DNA of 55,081 nucleotides, from the NCBI GenBank assembly GCA_021825655.1, contig JAKAGU010000006.1, positions 1-55,081 of the forward strand, in the 5' to 3' direction. Position numbers and translations under genes: made by a program. This document shows, in pieces, positions 3,982 through 29,617 of this stretch. A model generated the notes under the pieces. It saw only the letters and a program-made list of their open reading frames with translations. It searched no databases and was not told the DNA's origin. Every line of letters starts with the position of its first letter. The stretch's first letter is position 1. Source of the stretch: a bacterium (GTDB lineage Bacteria; Patescibacteriota; Doudnabacteria; UBA920).

Positions 3982-6045
<2,064 letters not shown>

Positions 6046-7550: not shown

Positions 7551-11180
<3,630 letters not shown>

Positions 11181-11389
11181 AAAATTGACTAGCAATTTGT
11201 GGCAATGTAGAATACCAATGTACATTAGTAATTTACCCGATGTTCAAACAAAACCTGAAAATTTTTGCAATTGTTTTGTTTATTCTCGCAGTTATTGGTT
11301 TCTTTTTCGTCCTTTCCAATCCTTTGGTTTATGCCCTTAAACCCTAAATGTCCTTCAAAGGCCTGATTTAAAAGCTTGAATACGGCCTT

Positions 11390-11503
11390 TGGGTGGCATT
11401 TACGGCGCGGTACGACCTGATCCCATCCCGAACTCAGCAGTCAAAAGCGCTTGTGCCAATGATACTCCGGTGCATGCCGGTGGAAAAGTAGGTAGCTGCC
11501 CAT
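11390..11503 (+). rRNA. rrf: 5S rRNA
   Basis: GATCCCATCCCGAACTC...AGTAGGTAGCTGCCCA motifs; terminal helix GGGTGGC/GCTGCCC. Confidence 0.95.
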
Positions 11504-11511
11504 TATATGAT

Positions 11512-22519: not shown

Positions 22520-24991
22520 ATGGCGAAACCAAAGTCCGAAAAATTCATTTTGTGGTTCAACGAAATCTCCAAAGGCGACGTTAACCTGGTTGGCGGCAAG
22601 AACGCCAACTTGGGCGAAATGTTCCAGAATCTGACCCAGGCGCAAAACAAAACTTTTCCCAAAGAAAAAATCCAAGTGCCCTACGGCTTTTCGGTTACCT
22701 CCGCCGCTTACCGCTATTTTATCAAAGCCAATGCCTTGGACGCCCAGATTAGGAGAATTTTGAAGGATTTGGACACGAAGGATATCCGCCAGCTGGAGGA
22801 GAAAGGCCAGGCCGTGCGCCAGGCGATTTTGCAGGCAGTCTTTCCGGAAGATTTACAGAAAGAAATTTATGCGGCTTATGACCAGTTGGCCAAGGAATTG
22901 AAATTGCCGGTCGCCACGTTGGATGTGGCCGTCCGGTCATCGGCCACGGCCGAGGATTTGGCCGACGCCTCTTTTGCCGGCCAGCAGGAATCGTACTTGA
23001 ATATCCGGGGCCAGTACCAGTTGACCGAAGCCATAAAGAAGTGTTTTGCTTCGCTCTTTACCAACCGGGCGATCTCTTACCGCGTGGACCAGAAATTCGA
23101 CCATTTTAAGGTAGCGCTGTCCGCTGCCGTGCAGAAAATGGTCCGCTCCGACCGCGGCGCCAGCGGCGTCATGTTCACCCTGGACACGGAAAGCGGCTTT
23201 AAGGAAATGGTGCTGATTAACGGGTCCTGGGGCTTGGGCGAGTACGTGGTGAAAGGCATTGTGACCCCGGATGAATACAAGGTATTCAAGCCGACTTTAA
23301 GAAAAGGCTATGATGCCATTATTAGCAAACGGCTGGGCAGCAAAGAAAAAAAACTCATTTATTCCAGCGAAGGCATGAGCCCGACCAAGGATGCCGCGGT
23401 GGTGGAAGCGGATAGGCACCGGTATGTGCTAACCGACAGCCAGGTGTTGCGCTTGGCCAAGTGGGGAACGATTATTGAAGAGCATTACGGCCGGCCTATG
23501 GATATTGAGTGGGCTTTCGATGGCGAAACCAAGGAGCTTTACATTGTACAAGCCAGGCCGGAGACGGTGCAGGCCCGCAAGGATATAAACGTTCTGGAAG
23601 AATATGTACTGCTGGAAAAAGGCAAGGTACTGTGCCAGGGCGCTTCCGTGGGGGCGAAAATCGGTTCGGGCAAAGCTCACTTTATTAAGGACGCTTCCCA
23701 GATTTCGGAATTTAAAACCGGGGAAGTTTTAGTGACGGAAATTACCGACCCCGACTGGGAGCCGATTATGAAAATGGCCAGTGCGATTGTGACGAATGCG
23801 GGCGGTAGGACGAGCCATGCCGCGATTGTTTCGCGCGAATTGGGTATTCCCGCGGTCGTGGGCTGCGGCAACGCCACCAAGGCTATTAGGTCTGGCCAGA
23901 ACGTGACCGTGTCCTGCGCCGAGGGCGAGGCGGGAAAAATTTATGACGGCCTGCTCAAGTTCAAGGTGGAGAAGCATGACTTAACCAACTTTGATCCGCC
24001 CAAGACCCAGATTAAAATGATTGTGGCCGACCCGGAACTGGCATTCGGCTATTCCTTTATTCCTAACCAGGGCGTGGGTTTGGCGCGGGAAGAGTTTATT
24101 ATTTCCAATTTCATCAAAATTCACCCCAACGCGCTGATTGATTACGAAAAGCTAGAGGACGAGCATGTTAAAAAACAGATTGACGAATTGACAGCGGGCT
24201 ATGCGGACAAGCTGGAGTATTACGTGGAGAAATTGTCCTATGGCATTGCCATGCTGGCCGCGGCCTTTTATCCCCGGGAAGTGATTTTGCGTTTCTCGGA
24301 TTTCAAGAGCAATGAGTACGCCAACTTGATTGGCGGCCGTTTGTATGAACCGGAAGAGGAAAACCCCATGATTGGCTGGCGCGGGGCCAGCCGCTACTAT
24401 GACCCCAATTTTGAAAGAGCTTTTGCCTTGGAGTGTATGGCAGTAAAGCGCGTCCGGGAAGAGATGGGCTTGTGGAATCTAAAGACCATGATCCCGTTCT
24501 GCCGCACTCCGGAAGAAGGAAAAAAAGTTTTGGAGATTATGAAGCGCTGCGGCTTGGACAATCTGGCCAAAGGCAAGAAAAAGCTGAAAACCGACGACCA
24601 CGGTCTGAGCGAGGAGCTGGAAGTTTGGTGCATGGCGGAGATTCCGTCCAATATTTTGCAGGTGGAAGAATTTGGCGCTTTGTTTGACGGCTTTTCCATT
24701 GGCTCTAACGACTTAACCCAGTTGACTTTGGGTATGGACCGCGACGGCAAACTGGTGGCGCATATTGCCAATGAAAAAAGCCCCTCAGTGAAAAAACTCA
24801 TCCATATACTCATCCAGGAATCCCACAAGATGGGGCTTAAGGTTGGTATTTGCGGCCAGGGCCCTTCGGATTTTCCCGATTTTGCGGAATTTCTGGTGCG
24901 CGAAGGTATTGACTCCATTTCTTTAAACCCGGATACCGTGCTTAAGGCCACGGTCAACATCAAGCGCGTGGAAAAAGCCATTGGCAAGTAA
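22520..24991 (+). CDS. ppsA: Phosphoenolpyruvate synthase (pyruvate, water dikinase)
   Basis: VGGKNANLGEM, VRSSATAED, FAGQQES, GGRTSHAAIVSRELG phospho-His motif, FSIGSNDLTQ, ICGQGPSD. Confidence 0.98.
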   Translation: MAKPKSEKFILWFNEISKGDVNLVGGKNANLGEMFQNLTQAQNKTFPKEKIQVPYGFSVTSAAYRYFIKANALDAQIRRILKDLDTKDIRQLEEKGQAVRQAILQAVFPEDLQKEIYAAYDQLAKELKLPVATLDVAVRSSATAEDLADASFAGQQESYLNIRGQYQLTEAIKKCFASLFTNRAISYRVDQKFDHFKVALSAAVQKMVRSDRGASGVMFTLDTESGFKEMVLINGSWGLGEYVVKGIVTPDEYKVFKPTLRKGYDAIISKRLGSKEKKLIYSSEGMSPTKDAAVVEADRHRYVLTDSQVLRLAKWGTIIEEHYGRPMDIEWAFDGETKELYIVQARPETVQARKDINVLEEYVLLEKGKVLCQGASVGAKIGSGKAHFIKDASQISEFKTGEVLVTEITDPDWEPIMKMASAIVTNAGGRTSHAAIVSRELGIPAVVGCGNATKAIRSGQNVTVSCAEGEAGKIYDGLLKFKVEKHDLTNFDPPKTQIKMIVADPELAFGYSFIPNQGVGLAREEFIISNFIKIHPNALIDYEKLEDEHVKKQIDELTAGYADKLEYYVEKLSYGIAMLAAAFYPREVILRFSDFKSNEYANLIGGRLYEPEEENPMIGWRGASRYYDPNFERAFALECMAVKRVREEMGLWNLKTMIPFCRTPEEGKKVLEIMKRCGLDNLAKGKKKLKTDDHGLSEELEVWCMAEIPSNILQVEEFGALFDGFSIGSNDLTQLTLGMDRDGKLVAHIANEKSPSVKKLIHILIQESHKMGLKVGICGQGPSDFPDFAEFLVREGIDSISLNPDTVLKATVNIKRVEKAIGK

Positions 24992-25000
24992 GTGCCAATA

Positions 25001-25033
25001 ATAAAAACCCCGAGCGTTAACTCGGGGTTTTTA
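25001..25033. terminator. Bidirectional terminator
   Basis: ATAAAAACCCCGAG-CGTTAA-CTCGGGGTTTTTAT between ppsA and tRNA-Ser. Confidence 0.8.
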
Positions 25034-25123
25034 TGGCGGAGAGAGGGGGATTCGAACCCCCGAAGCCTTTGACAGCTTACTCGCTTTCCAAGCGAGCGCA
25101 CTCGACCACTATGCGATCTCTCC
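25034..25123 (-). tRNA. tRNA-Ser (GGA)
   Basis: Reverse complement GGAGAGA...CTCGC-TTGGAAA-GCGAG, long variable arm, GGGGG-TTCGAAT-CCCCC, TCTCTCC-G-CCA. Confidence 0.97.
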
Positions 25124-25244
25124 GTAAAAAATTTACCTACATATTTTACCATTAAACCCCAGTTTTGTCGAGGTTGCGGCTACCCGAGTTTACAGCTAAA
25201 ATTAAGGTAAGAAACCCTGTTTTTGCAGGCGTCTGAAAGAAAAT

Positions 25245-27032: not shown

Positions 27033-28310
27033 ATGAAAAAGAAGAAAGTTTTAAAACCCCGCAAGCCGGAAAAGAAAAAAGCCAAAAAACCGGCCAAATC
27101 GGCCAAGGTTAAAGCTAAGCCCAAGACGAAACCGGTTAAGAAGGCAAAAAATTTGGCCAAGCCTGTGCAGTTAAGCCAGGCTGGTTTGGAGTTGACTGAA
27201 AAGGTTTTAAAGCAGCTGCTGGTGAAGGGCGCGGAGCGCAGCTTTGTAACTGAAGCGGAGATAATTCACGCTTTGCCCCAGTTCGAGGACGATATCCAGG
27301 TTCTGGAGAAGGTCATGGATGACCTGGAAAAGCGGGGTATTGAAATCGTGGACCAGGAAGTAGCCAGCATTTGGGAACAGGGCAAAAAGCCGGAAGAGGA
27401 AGGCGCGGAAGAAGTTAAGAGCGGCAAAGGCAAGAAGAAAAAGAAGCAGGAAGAAATGGTGGAGGCTTTTGACTTGGGCGATATTTACGACGATTCCATT
27501 CAGATGTACTTGCGGGAAATTGGCAAAGTGCCGCTGCTCACCGGCGAAGAGGAAATTAGCCTGGCCCAGCGCATTGGCAAGGGCGATGCGGCGGCCCGCA
27601 AAAAACTCACCGAAGCCAACCTGCGGCTGGTGGTTTCCATTGCCAAAAAGTATATGGGCAGGAATTTGGGACTCTTGGATTTAATCCAGGAAGGCAACTT
27701 GGGGCTGTTTAGGGCCGTGGAAAAGTTTGATTGGACCAAAGGCTACAAGTTTTCGACATACGCCACTTGGTGGATTCGCCAGGCCATTACCCGCGCTTTG
27801 GCTGACCAATCCCGGACCATCCGCATTCCCGTGCACATGGTGGAAACCCTGAACAAATACGCCCAAGCCGAGCGGCAGCTGGTGCAGGACTTGGGCCGCG
27901 AGCCTTTGCCTGAAGAGATTGCCGCGGAAATGGGGATTGAAGTGGAAAAGGTTTACCACTTAAAGAAGATTTCCCAGGAAACCGTTTCCATTGATTCCCC
28001 GGTGGGCGAGGATGAGGGTGAAGATTCCTCTTTGGGCGATTTTATCGTGGACGAAGACACCACCAAGCCCAACGAGGTGGCGGGTCGGCAGATTTTGAAA
28101 GAATACGTGGGCGGCATCCTTCAGGACTTGGACCCGCGGGAACAGAAAATTTTAAAAATGCGTTTTGGCCTGGAGGATGGGGTAACCCATACCCTGGAAG
28201 AAGTGGGTGAAGAGTTCGGTGTTACGCGCGAACGCATCCGCCAGATTGAAAGCAAGGCTCTGGAAAAGATCCGCGAGCACGTGGACATCGACAAGCTGCG
28301 GGATTACTAA
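27033..28310 (+). CDS. rpoD: Primary RNA polymerase sigma factor (sigma70)
   Basis: [69 protein letters not shown]. Confidence 0.98.
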
Positions 28311-28377
28311 ATTCCGCTTGTCTGGCCAGCAGCCGATAAAATATGGCCTAATAAAAAAATCCAAATTTTTGCACTCT

Positions 28378-28407
28378 AAAATCCGCCTTGCTTAAGGCGG
28401 ATTTTTT
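28378..28407 (+). terminator. rpoD terminator
   Basis: AAAATCCGCCTT-GCTT-AAGGCGGATTTT followed by T. Confidence 0.8.
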
Positions 28408-28411
28408 GGGC

Positions 28412-28439
28412 TTGACTGCCAATTTTACGGGCGTAGAAT
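28412..28439 (+). promoter_or_regulatory. Sigma70 promoter driving the intergenic RNA
   Basis: TTGACT (28412-17), 16 nt spacer, TAGAAT (28434-39). Confidence 0.6.
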
Positions 28440-28444
28440 TAAAG

Positions 28445-28635
28445 TAGAAAGGAAAGCAATAGATGCATAAACAGGTAACGAGTCTGGGCTAGTTTTTCTT
28501 CGCACGTTTAGCGAAAAGCCTCCAGGCGCTTAAGCCTATAACTAGATATTGCATCTAGAAAAAGAAATCGCAAATATGGGGAAAACTAGCCCGAAATAAA
28601 CCCCGACGATCCATATGAGGACGCCGGGGTTTATT
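28445..28635 (+). ncRNA. Candidate structured ncRNA (~190 nt; 6S-like size, family unassigned)
   Basis: Bounded by a promoter and an AATAAACCCCG/CGGGGTTTATT hairpin; long stem 28486-28514/28568-28592 closing a multi-hairpin interior. Confidence 0.5.
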
Positions 28636-28646
28636 CATGGTTGACA

Positions 28647-28680
28647 AATATATTGATGTATGTAAATATATCAATATATT
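28647..28680. promoter_or_regulatory. Inverted repeat over promoter, candidate ArsR operator
   Basis: AATATATTGAT-N12-ATCAATATATT directly after TTGACA (28641-46), upstream of the ArsR gene. Confidence 0.6.
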
Positions 28681-28695
28681 AATTCTAATTGGCAT

Positions 28696-28956
28696 ATGAG
28701 CGAAGCTTTTAAGCTATTTAAAGCCCTGGCGGACAAGACCCGCTTGGAAATTGCGGTCTATTTGGCCAAAAAAGGGGAAGTATCGTGCAAGGAATTGTCC
28801 AAAAAATTCCAGCTTTCTCAGCCCACGCTCTCCCATCATTTTGGCAAGCTGGAAGATGCGGGGGTGATTTTCGTGGAAAAGCGGGGGGTGACAAACTATT
28901 ACCGGATAAACAAAGTTTTTTTAAAGTCTAACGGACTGGATCTCAAAAAGATTTAA
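28696..28956 (+). CDS. ArsR/SmtB-family regulator
   Basis: FKALADKTRLEI...VSCKEL....LSQPTLSHHFGKLEDAGVI...KRG...YYRIN. Confidence 0.9.
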   Translation: MSEAFKLFKALADKTRLEIAVYLAKKGEVSCKELSKKFQLSQPTLSHHFGKLEDAGVIFVEKRGVTNYYRINKVFLKSNGLDLKKI

Positions 28957-28972
28957 GCAAGAAAGGAATACA

Positions 28973-29587
28973 ATGAAGGATTATAAGCAAGTGGCTACAG
29001 ATGCGGCGATTGACGAAGCCGCAAAACATTTGGCAGAACATAATTTTGAAACTTTTGTGGTTGCCACCAAAGAAGAAGCTAAGGCTAAGGTGTTGGAACT
29101 AATCCCCAAAGGGGCTGAGGTGATGACAATGACTTCCGTTACTTTGGAGGAAACCGGCCTGGCCCAGGCGATTAATGAAAGCGGCGAGTATGAAGCCGTG
29201 AAGCCCAAACTAATGGCTATGGACCGGGCGACTCAAGGTAGGGAAATGCAGAAGCTGGGCGCCGCCGCTCAGGTGTCGATAGGCAGTGTGCATGCCGTGA
29301 CCGAAGACGGCAAGGTGCTGATTGCTTCCAATAGCGGCAGCCAGCTGCCCGGGTATGCTTACGGTTCGGATTTGGTGATTTGGGTGGTGGGCGCCCAGAA
29401 AATCGTGGAGAATACCGATGCGGGCATCCGCCGGATTTATGACTACGTATTGCCTTTAGAAAGCGAACGGGCCCATAAGGCCTATGGCGTGCCGGGCAGT
29501 TTTGTAAGCAAGTTGCTAATTTACAACAAGGAACCTAATCCTAAGCGCATAAAGATAGTTATGGTCAAAGAAGCTTTGGGTTATTAA
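28973..29587 (+). CDS. LUD-domain (lactate utilization LutC/YkgG-like) protein
   Basis: SVTLEETGL, GSVHAVTEDG, SNSGSQL, VIWVVGAQKIV, VLPLESER. Confidence 0.75.
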   Translation: MKDYKQVATDAAIDEAAKHLAEHNFETFVVATKEEAKAKVLELIPKGAEVMTMTSVTLEETGLAQAINESGEYEAVKPKLMAMDRATQGREMQKLGAAAQVSIGSVHAVTEDGKVLIASNSGSQLPGYAYGSDLVIWVVGAQKIVENTDAGIRRIYDYVLPLESERAHKAYGVPGSFVSKLLIYNKEPNPKRIKIVMVKEALGY

Positions 29588-29617
29588 AAAACTCCCCGCC
29601 ATAGCGGGGAGTTTTTT
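29587..29617. terminator. Bidirectional terminator
   Basis: AAAAACTCCCCGC-CATA-GCGGGGAGTTTTT. Confidence 0.75.

Follow-up and report, generated by a model that had tools for sequence, protein, structure and literature searches.

Between rpoD and a gene of the ArsR family in the stretch of Doudnabacteria DNA analyzed here (55,081 nucleotides (nt) of contig JAKAGU010000006.1, hereafter the window) lies a region that a preliminary description, made from the sequence, had proposed to be a self-contained structured RNA gene. The local order of genes is tRNA-Ser (minus strand), dnaG, rpoD, the RNA gene, arsR and a gene for a LUD-domain protein, followed by a convergent deoxyhypusine synthase (DHS)-like gene and an agmatine deiminase gene. 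The nearest RpoD loci are those of metagenome-assembled genomes of Candidatus Doudnabacteria and other Patescibacteria, and the DNA of the window is present in mine-drainage metagenomes. The proposal is upheld: having its own promoter, its own terminator and a tight linkage to rpoD, the element can be regarded with high confidence as a genuine stand-alone gene encoding a structured RNA of approximately 190 nt (Table 1).

The RNA gene and its family

Both of the signals that the preliminary description had placed around the RNA, a sigma-70-type promoter and a closing hairpin, are present, and the approximately 150 nt between them contain no open reading frame (ORF) of more than 30 codons on the + strand, as had also been noted there. 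The -35 and -10 hexamers of this promoter are conserved in position over the 41 members of the family described below. The closing hairpin is symmetric, and the terminator could act in both directions. A separate hairpin, the intrinsic terminator of rpoD, which had likewise been recognized ahead of the RNA gene, was overlooked by a simple terminator scan and recovered by folding; its region gave weak matches in Rfam, all of terminator type. With the + strand from 28445 to 28640, the minimum free energy (MFE) was -61.3 kcal/mol compared to -42.7 ± 4.0 kcal/mol for shuffled sequences (z -4.6), a value equaled by none of 200 shuffles.

Table 1. Coordinates of the RNA gene, its parts and the adjoining rpoD features in the window
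Feature	Coordinates	Strand	Remarks
rpoD (sigma-70, 425 aa)	27033..28310	+	Pfam Sigma70 r1.1, r1.2, r2, r3 and r4; upstream neighbor of the RNA gene
Relaxed DnaA-type box TTTTGCACT	28367..28375	+	Fits TTWTNCAC; 77 nt before the RNA start
rpoD intrinsic terminator hairpin AAAAUCCGCCUU-GCUU-AAGGCGGAUUUU and U run	28378..28407	+	Fold of -22.7 kcal/mol, z -3.5
Sigma-70-type promoter TTGACT-16-TAGAAT	28412..28439	+	10/12 consensus positions; predicted transcription start ~28445-28447
5'-terminal Shine-Dalgarno sequence AGAAAGGAAAG	28446..28456	+	Invariant or near-invariant columns; mean unpaired probability 0.79 across 38 members
Micro-ORF1, MHKQVTSLG*	28463..28492	+	9 codons; UAG stop inside the P1 5' strand
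P1 5' strand GGGCUAGUUUUUCU	28486..28499	+	Pairs with 28578-28592; 14 pairs, 11 changed on both sides; 82% of cells paired
P1b 5' strand GCGA	28511..28514	+	Pairs with UCGC, 28568-28571; 4/4 double changes; 96.8% paired
Junction AAAGCCUCC with invariant A-G-C	28515..28523	+	Invariant columns A74, G75 and C76
P3 hairpin AGGC-GCUUAA-GCCU	28524..28537	+	5/5 pairs with double changes; 98.4% paired
P4 hairpin CUAGAU-AUUGC-AUCUAG	28542..28558	+	5 pairs; sequence and length vary; 67.5% paired
A-rich single strand and P1b 3' strand AAAAAGAAAUCGCAAAU	28559..28575	+	Conserved; upstream region of micro-ORF2; unpaired probability 0.63
Micro-ORF2, MGKTSPK*	28576..28599	+	Codons 1-6 form the P1 3' strand (28578-28592); UAA stop (28597-28599) in the lower terminator stem
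Intrinsic terminator AAAUAAACCCCGACG...CGCCGGGGUUUAUU	28594..28635	+	Strong closing hairpin; symmetric

In 16 related genomes, blastn and nhmmer searches located the element 3' of rpoD and in the same orientation; a covariance model was then built from an alignment of 17 sequences, onto which a structure had been projected. RNAalifold applied to the raw MAFFT alignment missed the helix P1 through misalignment; the structure was projected by hand and the sequences were realigned with the covariance model. Twenty-one members were recognized by the model among 80 rpoD loci. A synteny-blind scan of metagenomes with a DNA pattern based on leader and junction sequences returned 102 stretches, 20 of which were true members by the model, and the family now totals 41 members, 39 of them distinct (alignment A4), with RNA lengths of 178 to 259 nt. 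An RpoD ORF is found upstream on the same strand in 38 of the 41 loci, pattern-found loci included, and wherever the flank suffices, the RNA gene lies on the rpoD strand and downstream of rpoD, with one or two genes between them in four loci (L012, L016, L018, and L020). A second-iteration model (R2) found no further members among 60 other Patescibacteria rpoD loci, a motif regular expression gave no matches, and the family appears to be confined to one clade of Doudnabacteria, with RpoD proteins at least approximately 73% identical to that of the window.

Which genes occur 3' of the RNA depends on the locus. They are arsR and the LUD gene in the window, and genes for CFA synthase, an SLT-domain protein, an IS200 transposase, TruB or a DUF3800 protein at other loci; the remaining loci have convergent DHS-like and agmatine deiminase genes, or convergent acylphosphatase, peroxiredoxin and DUF3048 genes. 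Clustering and a Pfam scan of the downstream genes revealed no conserved downstream ORF cluster over the family loci. Because these genes are unrelated or convergent, the RNA is not a leader but a gene standing on its own; a cis-acting leader of the downstream gene was considered and rejected, the downstream genes having nothing in common.

The long irregular stem of the preliminary description is recovered in the MFE structure, with 28485-28514 pairing with 28568-28593 and enclosing the hairpins AGGC/GCCU (P3) and CUAGAU/AUCUAG (P4). Covariation among orthologous regions, which had been suggested as a check, was found: the helices are kept through compensatory changes in the 40 other loci. 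In alignment A4, 85.1% of cells are paired compared to 73.6% in shuffles and 27-47% in slid controls, and double-sided changes occur in 25 of the 28 pairs, a value reached by none of 500 shuffles (a 22-sequence version of the alignment was also tested). P1, P1b, and P3 are thereby backed by strong covariation; P4 is variable, and some members have an extra hairpin, P2, between P1 and P1b. Two alternative forms had been offered for the inner hairpin, of which AGGC-GCTTAA-GCCT is backed by covariation and GCC-TCCA-GGC is not, while the TATAAC word singled out beside them is not conserved across the family. MFE folding of 17 members left the first 40 nt or so unpaired, without a closing stem to the 3' end; P1 begins approximately 40 nt into the RNA and the terminator comes after P1. 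By covariation, the interior is a branched junction (P1b, P3, P4, and the optional P2) and not a rod with a central bubble. Approximately 56 G-U cells of the alignment would become A-C mismatches if read on the opposite strand, and the + strand is therefore favored. Two further candidate features were rejected, namely a pseudoknot between the junction AAGCC and the P3 loop, the two registers of which paired no better than shuffles (70.8 vs. 70.3% and 77.9 vs. 76.7%), and mimicry of the 5' untranslated region (UTR) of rpoD, where the UUAAGCC-AUA common to both in the window is not conserved in relatives and is attributed to chance.

Members of the family are transcribed in soil, peat, and rhizosphere. 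Contigs 85-95% alike to the relative L001 were found in four metatranscriptomes (soil, rhizosphere twice, and peat); they span positions 4551-4730 of that locus, where the RNA is predicted at 4535-4732, and include neither flank, with a word depth of up to 62. One L001-like contig runs through the terminator. In adapter-bearing contigs from two studies, and at two loci of opposite orientation, the read-1 adapter is on the side antisense to the predicted RNA, which fits a + strand RNA, given the usual stranded (dUTP-type) libraries; the orientation of the promoter agrees with this strand. Contigs from two studies abut adapters 2 nt after the AUG of the first of two micro-ORFs (micro-ORF1) and 1-3 nt after the stop of the second (micro-ORF2), at L001 positions 4559 and 4690-4693, or ~28467 and 28599-28602 of the window. 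These junctions may represent priming immediately ahead of the stable terminator hairpin, or an RNA of ~132 nt produced by processing.

No family of Rfam 15 matches the RNA of the window or those of nine relatives, at the gathering score or at E ≤ 10, apart from terminator-like noise, and no description of this RNA was found in Rfam 15 or in the literature searched; the element is a new RNA family. The outcome of this Rfam scan agrees with one of the two identities offered by the preliminary description, a new class of non-coding RNA (the other, a 6S-like RNA, is weighed below). With respect to known riboswitch classes, no aptamer of Rfam was matched and the RNA is not 5' of any conserved gene. 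A tmRNA or tRNA-like identity was also rejected: ARAGORN finds two tRNAs in the window, none of them at 28.4-28.6 kb, and no tmRNA model of Rfam was matched.

The two micro-ORFs and the DnaA-type box

Situated 1-3 nt from the predicted 5' end of the RNA, the Shine-Dalgarno (SD) sequence is the best-conserved block of the family. Its sequence, AGAAAGGAAAG, is complementary to the usual 3' tail of 16S rRNA, ...CCUCCUUUCU, a general tail that we take to apply to this organism, the 16S rRNA of which is encoded outside the window. The GAUG at 28462-28465 is invariant or nearly so, and the spacer between the SD and the AUG is 7-10 nt. This AUG opens the 9-codon ORF, MHKQVTSLG, that the preliminary description had listed and underweighted: the strong native SD and the AUG rank among the most conserved features of the RNA. 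Micro-ORF1 has 8-10 codons in 26 of the 41 members, and in 20 of the 41 it terminates within the 5' strand of P1, with the stop at offset +4.

The SD stands out against the usage of the genome. Most of the long ORFs of the window lack an SD, and in many of them a TATAAT-like box is found only 6-10 nt upstream of the ATG (e.g., those with ATG at 3985, 21023, 20979 (minus strand), 34578, and 16770), which suggests that leaderless or very-short-leader mRNAs are widespread in this organism. The motif GAAAGGA occurs four times in the 55-kb window (at 28447, 28961, 30739 (minus strand), and 11316 (minus strand)), compared to 9.3 expected occurrences, and three of the four copies are positioned 5-10 nt before starts within 2.3 kb of each other, these being the starts of micro-ORF1, the LUD gene (ATG 28973) and the DHS-like gene (ATG 30724, minus strand). 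In the relatives L159, L092, L134, and L096, the DHS-like gene has retained its GAAAGGA SD. Given its rarity, its placement before starts and its retention at the DHS-like gene, GAAAGGA is read from the sequence as the strong native SD of the organism.

The second micro-ORF, interlocked with both P1 and the terminator, was overlooked in the preliminary description. It opens with an ATG in the junction that immediately precedes the P1 3' strand, and closes with a stop at the base of the terminator. Six to eight codons long (18, 21, or 24 nt), it has an invariant AUG and a stop in frame in all 41 members despite insertions and deletions; the stop is TAA in 40 of them and TAG in one, and the positions flanking the start and stop triplets vary. 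The upstream region is A-rich and mostly unpaired, and resembles native leaders that have no SD, such as that of dnaG. P1 holds positions +3 to +15 (unpaired probability 0.15), and the stop pairs within the terminator (0.07); in 40 of 40 evaluable members, the start of the terminator stem is -3 to +1 nt relative to the first base of this stop, with stabilities of -16 to -35 kcal/mol.

A box fitting the DnaA consensus is found within 82 nt upstream in 38 of the 41 loci, in both orientations. In relatives of the window, this box reads TTATCCAC followed by C or T and occurs in either orientation at -46 to -53, or at -71 to -82 in loci with an intervening rpoD terminator hairpin; the variants TTGTCCAC, TTATGCAC, and TTATACAC each conform to the classical DnaA-box consensus. 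There are 48 exact copies of TTATCCAC in 314 kb of member loci, of which 31 are within 100 nt upstream of the RNA start. A second box is present in approximately 10 loci and three boxes in two. Their placement suggests a link between transcription of the RNA and the state of the replication initiator, through a predicted binding of DnaA. A similar arrangement is known from DnaA-regulated promoters such as that of Bacillus subtilis sda, where one or more consensus DnaA boxes are directly 5' of the -35 element of a small gene; unlike sda, the product here is an RNA and not a protein, and control by DnaA is a prediction. A replication origin at the RNA locus was considered and rejected, there being no switch of GC skew near 28 kb and no enrichment of TTATCCAC elsewhere in the window. 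As a separate observation, the boxes of L116 and L137 are at -71, -60, and -48, and boxes occur at approximately -141 to -194 in L001, L156, L132, L014, and L011; in these relatives, two or three boxes separate rpoD from the RNA promoter, describing a small DnaA-box cluster and not a single site.

A proposed translation-gated switch and its alternatives

The interlocking of the two micro-ORFs with the fold has led us to propose that the RNA functions as a translation-gated switch, a reading that we consider quite possible, if somewhat short of an even chance. Micro-ORF1, at the extreme 5' end behind a rare and strong native SD, would recruit a ribosome, and micro-ORF2 would offer a second point of ribosome entry, its A-rich and SD-less start region being like that of most native genes. 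The two would be coupled by P1: micro-ORF1 ends in or crosses the 5' strand of this helix, and the first six codons of micro-ORF2 are its 3' strand. A ribosome on micro-ORF1 would melt P1 and expose micro-ORF2, and a ribosome finishing micro-ORF2 would invade the terminator hairpin, so that the fold of the RNA would depend on ribosome engagement. By reporting this engagement, the fold would set the 3' end of the RNA, how stable it is, or whether its conserved inner domain (P1b, P3, and P4 with their junctions) is available. The micro-ORF peptides would not themselves be the product, and DnaA would tie transcription of the RNA to the replication initiator. Precedent for the relay may be seen in the coat-replicase region of MS2 and in the hok/mok mRNA, in which translation of an upstream frame opens a long-distance helix hiding a downstream start, as would be the case here; those systems control real protein genes, whereas the frame unmasked in the present RNA has 6-8 codons and ends in the terminator. 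That the family stands for a hitherto undescribed class of regulatory RNAs, ribosome-gated and standing alone without a protein product or a downstream gene, with a DnaA-controlled promoter and micro-ORFs as its moving parts, is put forward more tentatively and is to be regarded as somewhat unlikely.

A number of observations weigh against a translation-gated switch. Translation of both micro-ORFs is itself a prediction, and micro-ORF2 is without an SD. Micro-ORF1 has 12-27 codons in the other 15 of the 41 members, running through P1 into the inner domain with no fixed position of its stop. The peptides are not conserved (e.g., MGKASLK, MQKHLQ, MELYWSN, and MRQYTNT). The retention of the micro-ORF2 frame is suggestive as evidence for a reading frame, since the in-frame changes of length may trace to only two to four independent insertions or deletions, in which case the probability of chance retention would be ~0.01-0.1. 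No antiterminator pairing, whether of the P1 3' strand with a terminator arm or of the SD with the U-rich P1 5' strand, was seen by eye to be conserved across clades including the far clade, and the family loci have no conserved gene downstream on which a switch could act. The transcription evidence holds for relatives and the family and not for this exact locus: metatranscriptomes of the study from which the window derives gave only cross-matches to conserved rpoD segments of other organisms. The assembled contigs have no direction of their own, and the assignment of strand assumes dUTP-type libraries. Finally, the sole DnaA-type box of the window is the relaxed TTTTGCACT, and the binding of DnaA is deduced from sequence.

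An alternative, which appears unlikely, is that the RNA is a stable protein- or ribosome-binding small RNA (sRNA), the working part of which is the inner domain (P1b, P3, the junction AAGCC, and the A-rich strand); the 5' SD-AUG would then be a mere ribosome-binding stabilizer, and the triplets of micro-ORF2 would be kept for structure or recognition by protein. The STAB-SD of the cryIIIA mRNA is a ribosome-binding 5' stabilizer of this kind, protecting against 5' exonuclease; as in this and other ribosome-protected 5' ends, the present RNA is a stable transcript that opens with a strong GAAAGGA-type SD. It differs in having a start codon at normal spacing and a second frame interlocked with structure. 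The extreme 5' position and high conservation of the SD, the unconserved peptides, the invariant junction nucleotides, the want of a downstream gene, and an abundance sufficient for the RNA, but not its neighbors, to be assembled from metatranscriptomes all agree with such a binding RNA. What it leaves unexplained are an invariant AUG at proper SD spacing where the spacer varies in length (7-10 nt), the frame of micro-ORF2 in 41 of 41 members through three lengths and a change of TAA to TAG, and the fixed abutment of its stop with the terminator stem. Decidedly improbable, in our view, is a sensor RNA in which a ligand or protein at the inner three-way junction would set, in the manner of a riboswitch or operator, whether the P4 CAUCU pairs with the AGAUG of micro-ORF1, and so control micro-ORF1 and the relay. 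The complementarity of the leader and the apical hairpin pointed out in the preliminary description is indeed present in the window (TAGATGCA at 28460-28467 with TGCATCTA at 28550-28557; 8 base pairs, -12 kcal/mol), the P4 segment UGCAUCUA (28550-28557) being complementary to the start region of micro-ORF1 (28460-28467), and across the family it exceeds that of shuffles (mean z -1.39; p < 0.05 in 13 of 39; CAUC in 59%); the junction nucleotides are conserved as well. However, matched leader and P4 pairs form duplexes no better than mismatched ones (-8.3 vs. -7.8 kcal/mol), a flat result owing to the invariance of the leader, the complementarity is absent in the far clade, no known aptamer class matches, and the RNA is outside any 5' UTR.

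The second identity raised by the preliminary description, a divergent 6S-like RNA binding the sigma-70 holoenzyme and encoded beside the gene of its target, is scarcely probable. Like 6S RNA (SsrS; RF00013 and relatives), the RNA is a stand-alone, abundant transcript of ~190 nt, starting from a promoter and ending at a terminator of its own, and its near-universal linkage provides a genomic tie to rpoD. Unlike 6S RNA, it gives no match to the 6S covariance models at the gathering score or at E ≤ 10 (window and nine relatives), its 5' 40 nt are single-stranded with no closing stem, its covariation-backed interior is branched where a central-bubble rod would be expected, and its 5' end is an SD-AUG. 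It is very unlikely that the locus consists of one or two tiny protein-coding genes, with functional peptides of 6-10 residues acting, for example, as signals or on the ribosome. Both micro-ORFs have credible native start regions, the frame of micro-ORF2 is conserved and MINR... recurs in the near clade; against these stand the free divergence of the sequences, the changes of frame and length of micro-ORF1 in a third of members, and the pairing in P1, which accounts for the nucleotide conservation of micro-ORF2. The comparison with dual-function sRNAs leads to the same features: as with SgrS/SgrT, RNAIII/hld, and SR1/SR1P, the RNA is independently transcribed from its own promoter to its own terminator and has translatable ORFs, but these are far shorter, no small-protein product is conserved, and no base-pairing seed or target is known. 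Little probability is likewise given to a cis-acting element, either a leader or attenuator of the downstream gene or a part of the rpoD 3' UTR controlling the rpoD mRNA. The architecture does resemble the trp and pyrBI leaders and the cat, cmlA, and erm leaders, with an SD-led short ORF followed by a helix masking the next start, and an ORF end that overlaps an intrinsic terminator (the micro-ORF2 stop being within the terminator stem in 40 of 40) where ribosome and hairpin would be mutually exclusive; arsR and the LUD gene follow on the same strand in the window, and the RNA gene always comes after rpoD. Yet the RNA differs from leader-peptide attenuators in standing alone, without a regulated gene or an antiterminator found, in having two micro-ORFs in relay, and in peptides that are neither conserved nor enriched in any amino acid. 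No same-strand downstream gene is conserved in the family loci, the downstream genes vary and are convergent in many, and arsR has promoter-like hexamers and an operator-like palindrome of its own. As for rpoD, it has its own terminator, the RNA has a conserved promoter, and one or two genes separate them in the four loci named above.

The wider window and significance of the family

Several features of the surrounding DNA were recorded. Just 5' of the ArsR-family gene (28696-28956), the 32-nt palindrome ATATATTGATGTATGTAAATATATCAATATAT at 28648-28679 coincides in part with promoter-like hexamers of both strands and is probably the autoregulatory operator of that gene. The 3' flank of the RNA gene (28636-29600 in the window, and the corresponding flanks of L004, L006, L007, L010, and L014) is hypervariable between close relatives, its contents being arsR and LUD, an IS200 Y1 transposase, an SLT-domain protein, DUF3800, CFA synthase or TruB, and this flank is likely an insertion hot spot beside a stable-RNA gene. 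Directly 3' of the RNA terminator in L001 (4733-4810) is a run of TACGAA/TTCGTA repeats in both orientations, and like words occur after rpoD in L002. Further away, the 23S rRNA gene (7552-11504) is approximately 700 nt longer than the bacterial large-subunit model of Rfam as a result of several insertions, e.g., one of 119 nt near model position 274. A 5S gene follows it, and no 16S rRNA gene was detected in the whole window by the Rfam gathering scan; the rRNA genes appear to be unlinked, which is common in bacteria of the candidate phyla radiation (CPR). An ORF of 251 codons without a Pfam match (24397-25152, minus strand) overlaps the tRNA-Ser(GGA) gene (25034-25123, minus strand) and is probably not a real gene where the two overlap. 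Between approximately 46500 and 49500, GC skew, at first positive, turns negative and the GC content shifts from 0.41 to 0.56, which could mark a replication terminus, an origin, or the edge of foreign DNA.

To our knowledge, almost no regulatory RNAs have been described from the CPR/Patescibacteria. The present family has no entry in Rfam 15 and is well supported by covariation, by synteny and by transcripts from the environment; its covariance model provides a new annotatable RNA gene for this clade, and the hypervariable 3' flank of the gene marks a likely insertion hot spot. Its design is unusual in placing the strongest native ribosome-binding site on an RNA gene of a genome that seems mostly to use SD-less or leaderless mRNAs, and in combining two micro-ORFs that have conserved start and stop signals and unconserved peptides with a stop built into the terminator stem and a DnaA-type box. 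The parts are of known kinds, namely leader-peptide/terminator interplay, long-range translational coupling, an sRNA with ORFs and a DnaA-box promoter; what is new is their combination in a stand-alone RNA without a regulated gene. If the proposed relay between the micro-ORFs is true, it would be a compact case of translation used purely as a conformational signal, and would provide a handle on the coupling of replication, transcription and translation in uncultured, genome-reduced bacteria. Should the family prove to be a class of ribosome-gated RNAs, an RNA encoded after dnaG and rpoD would, in genome-reduced bacteria of the CPR with mostly SD-less mRNAs, link replication status, the sigma-factor locus and the availability of ribosomes.

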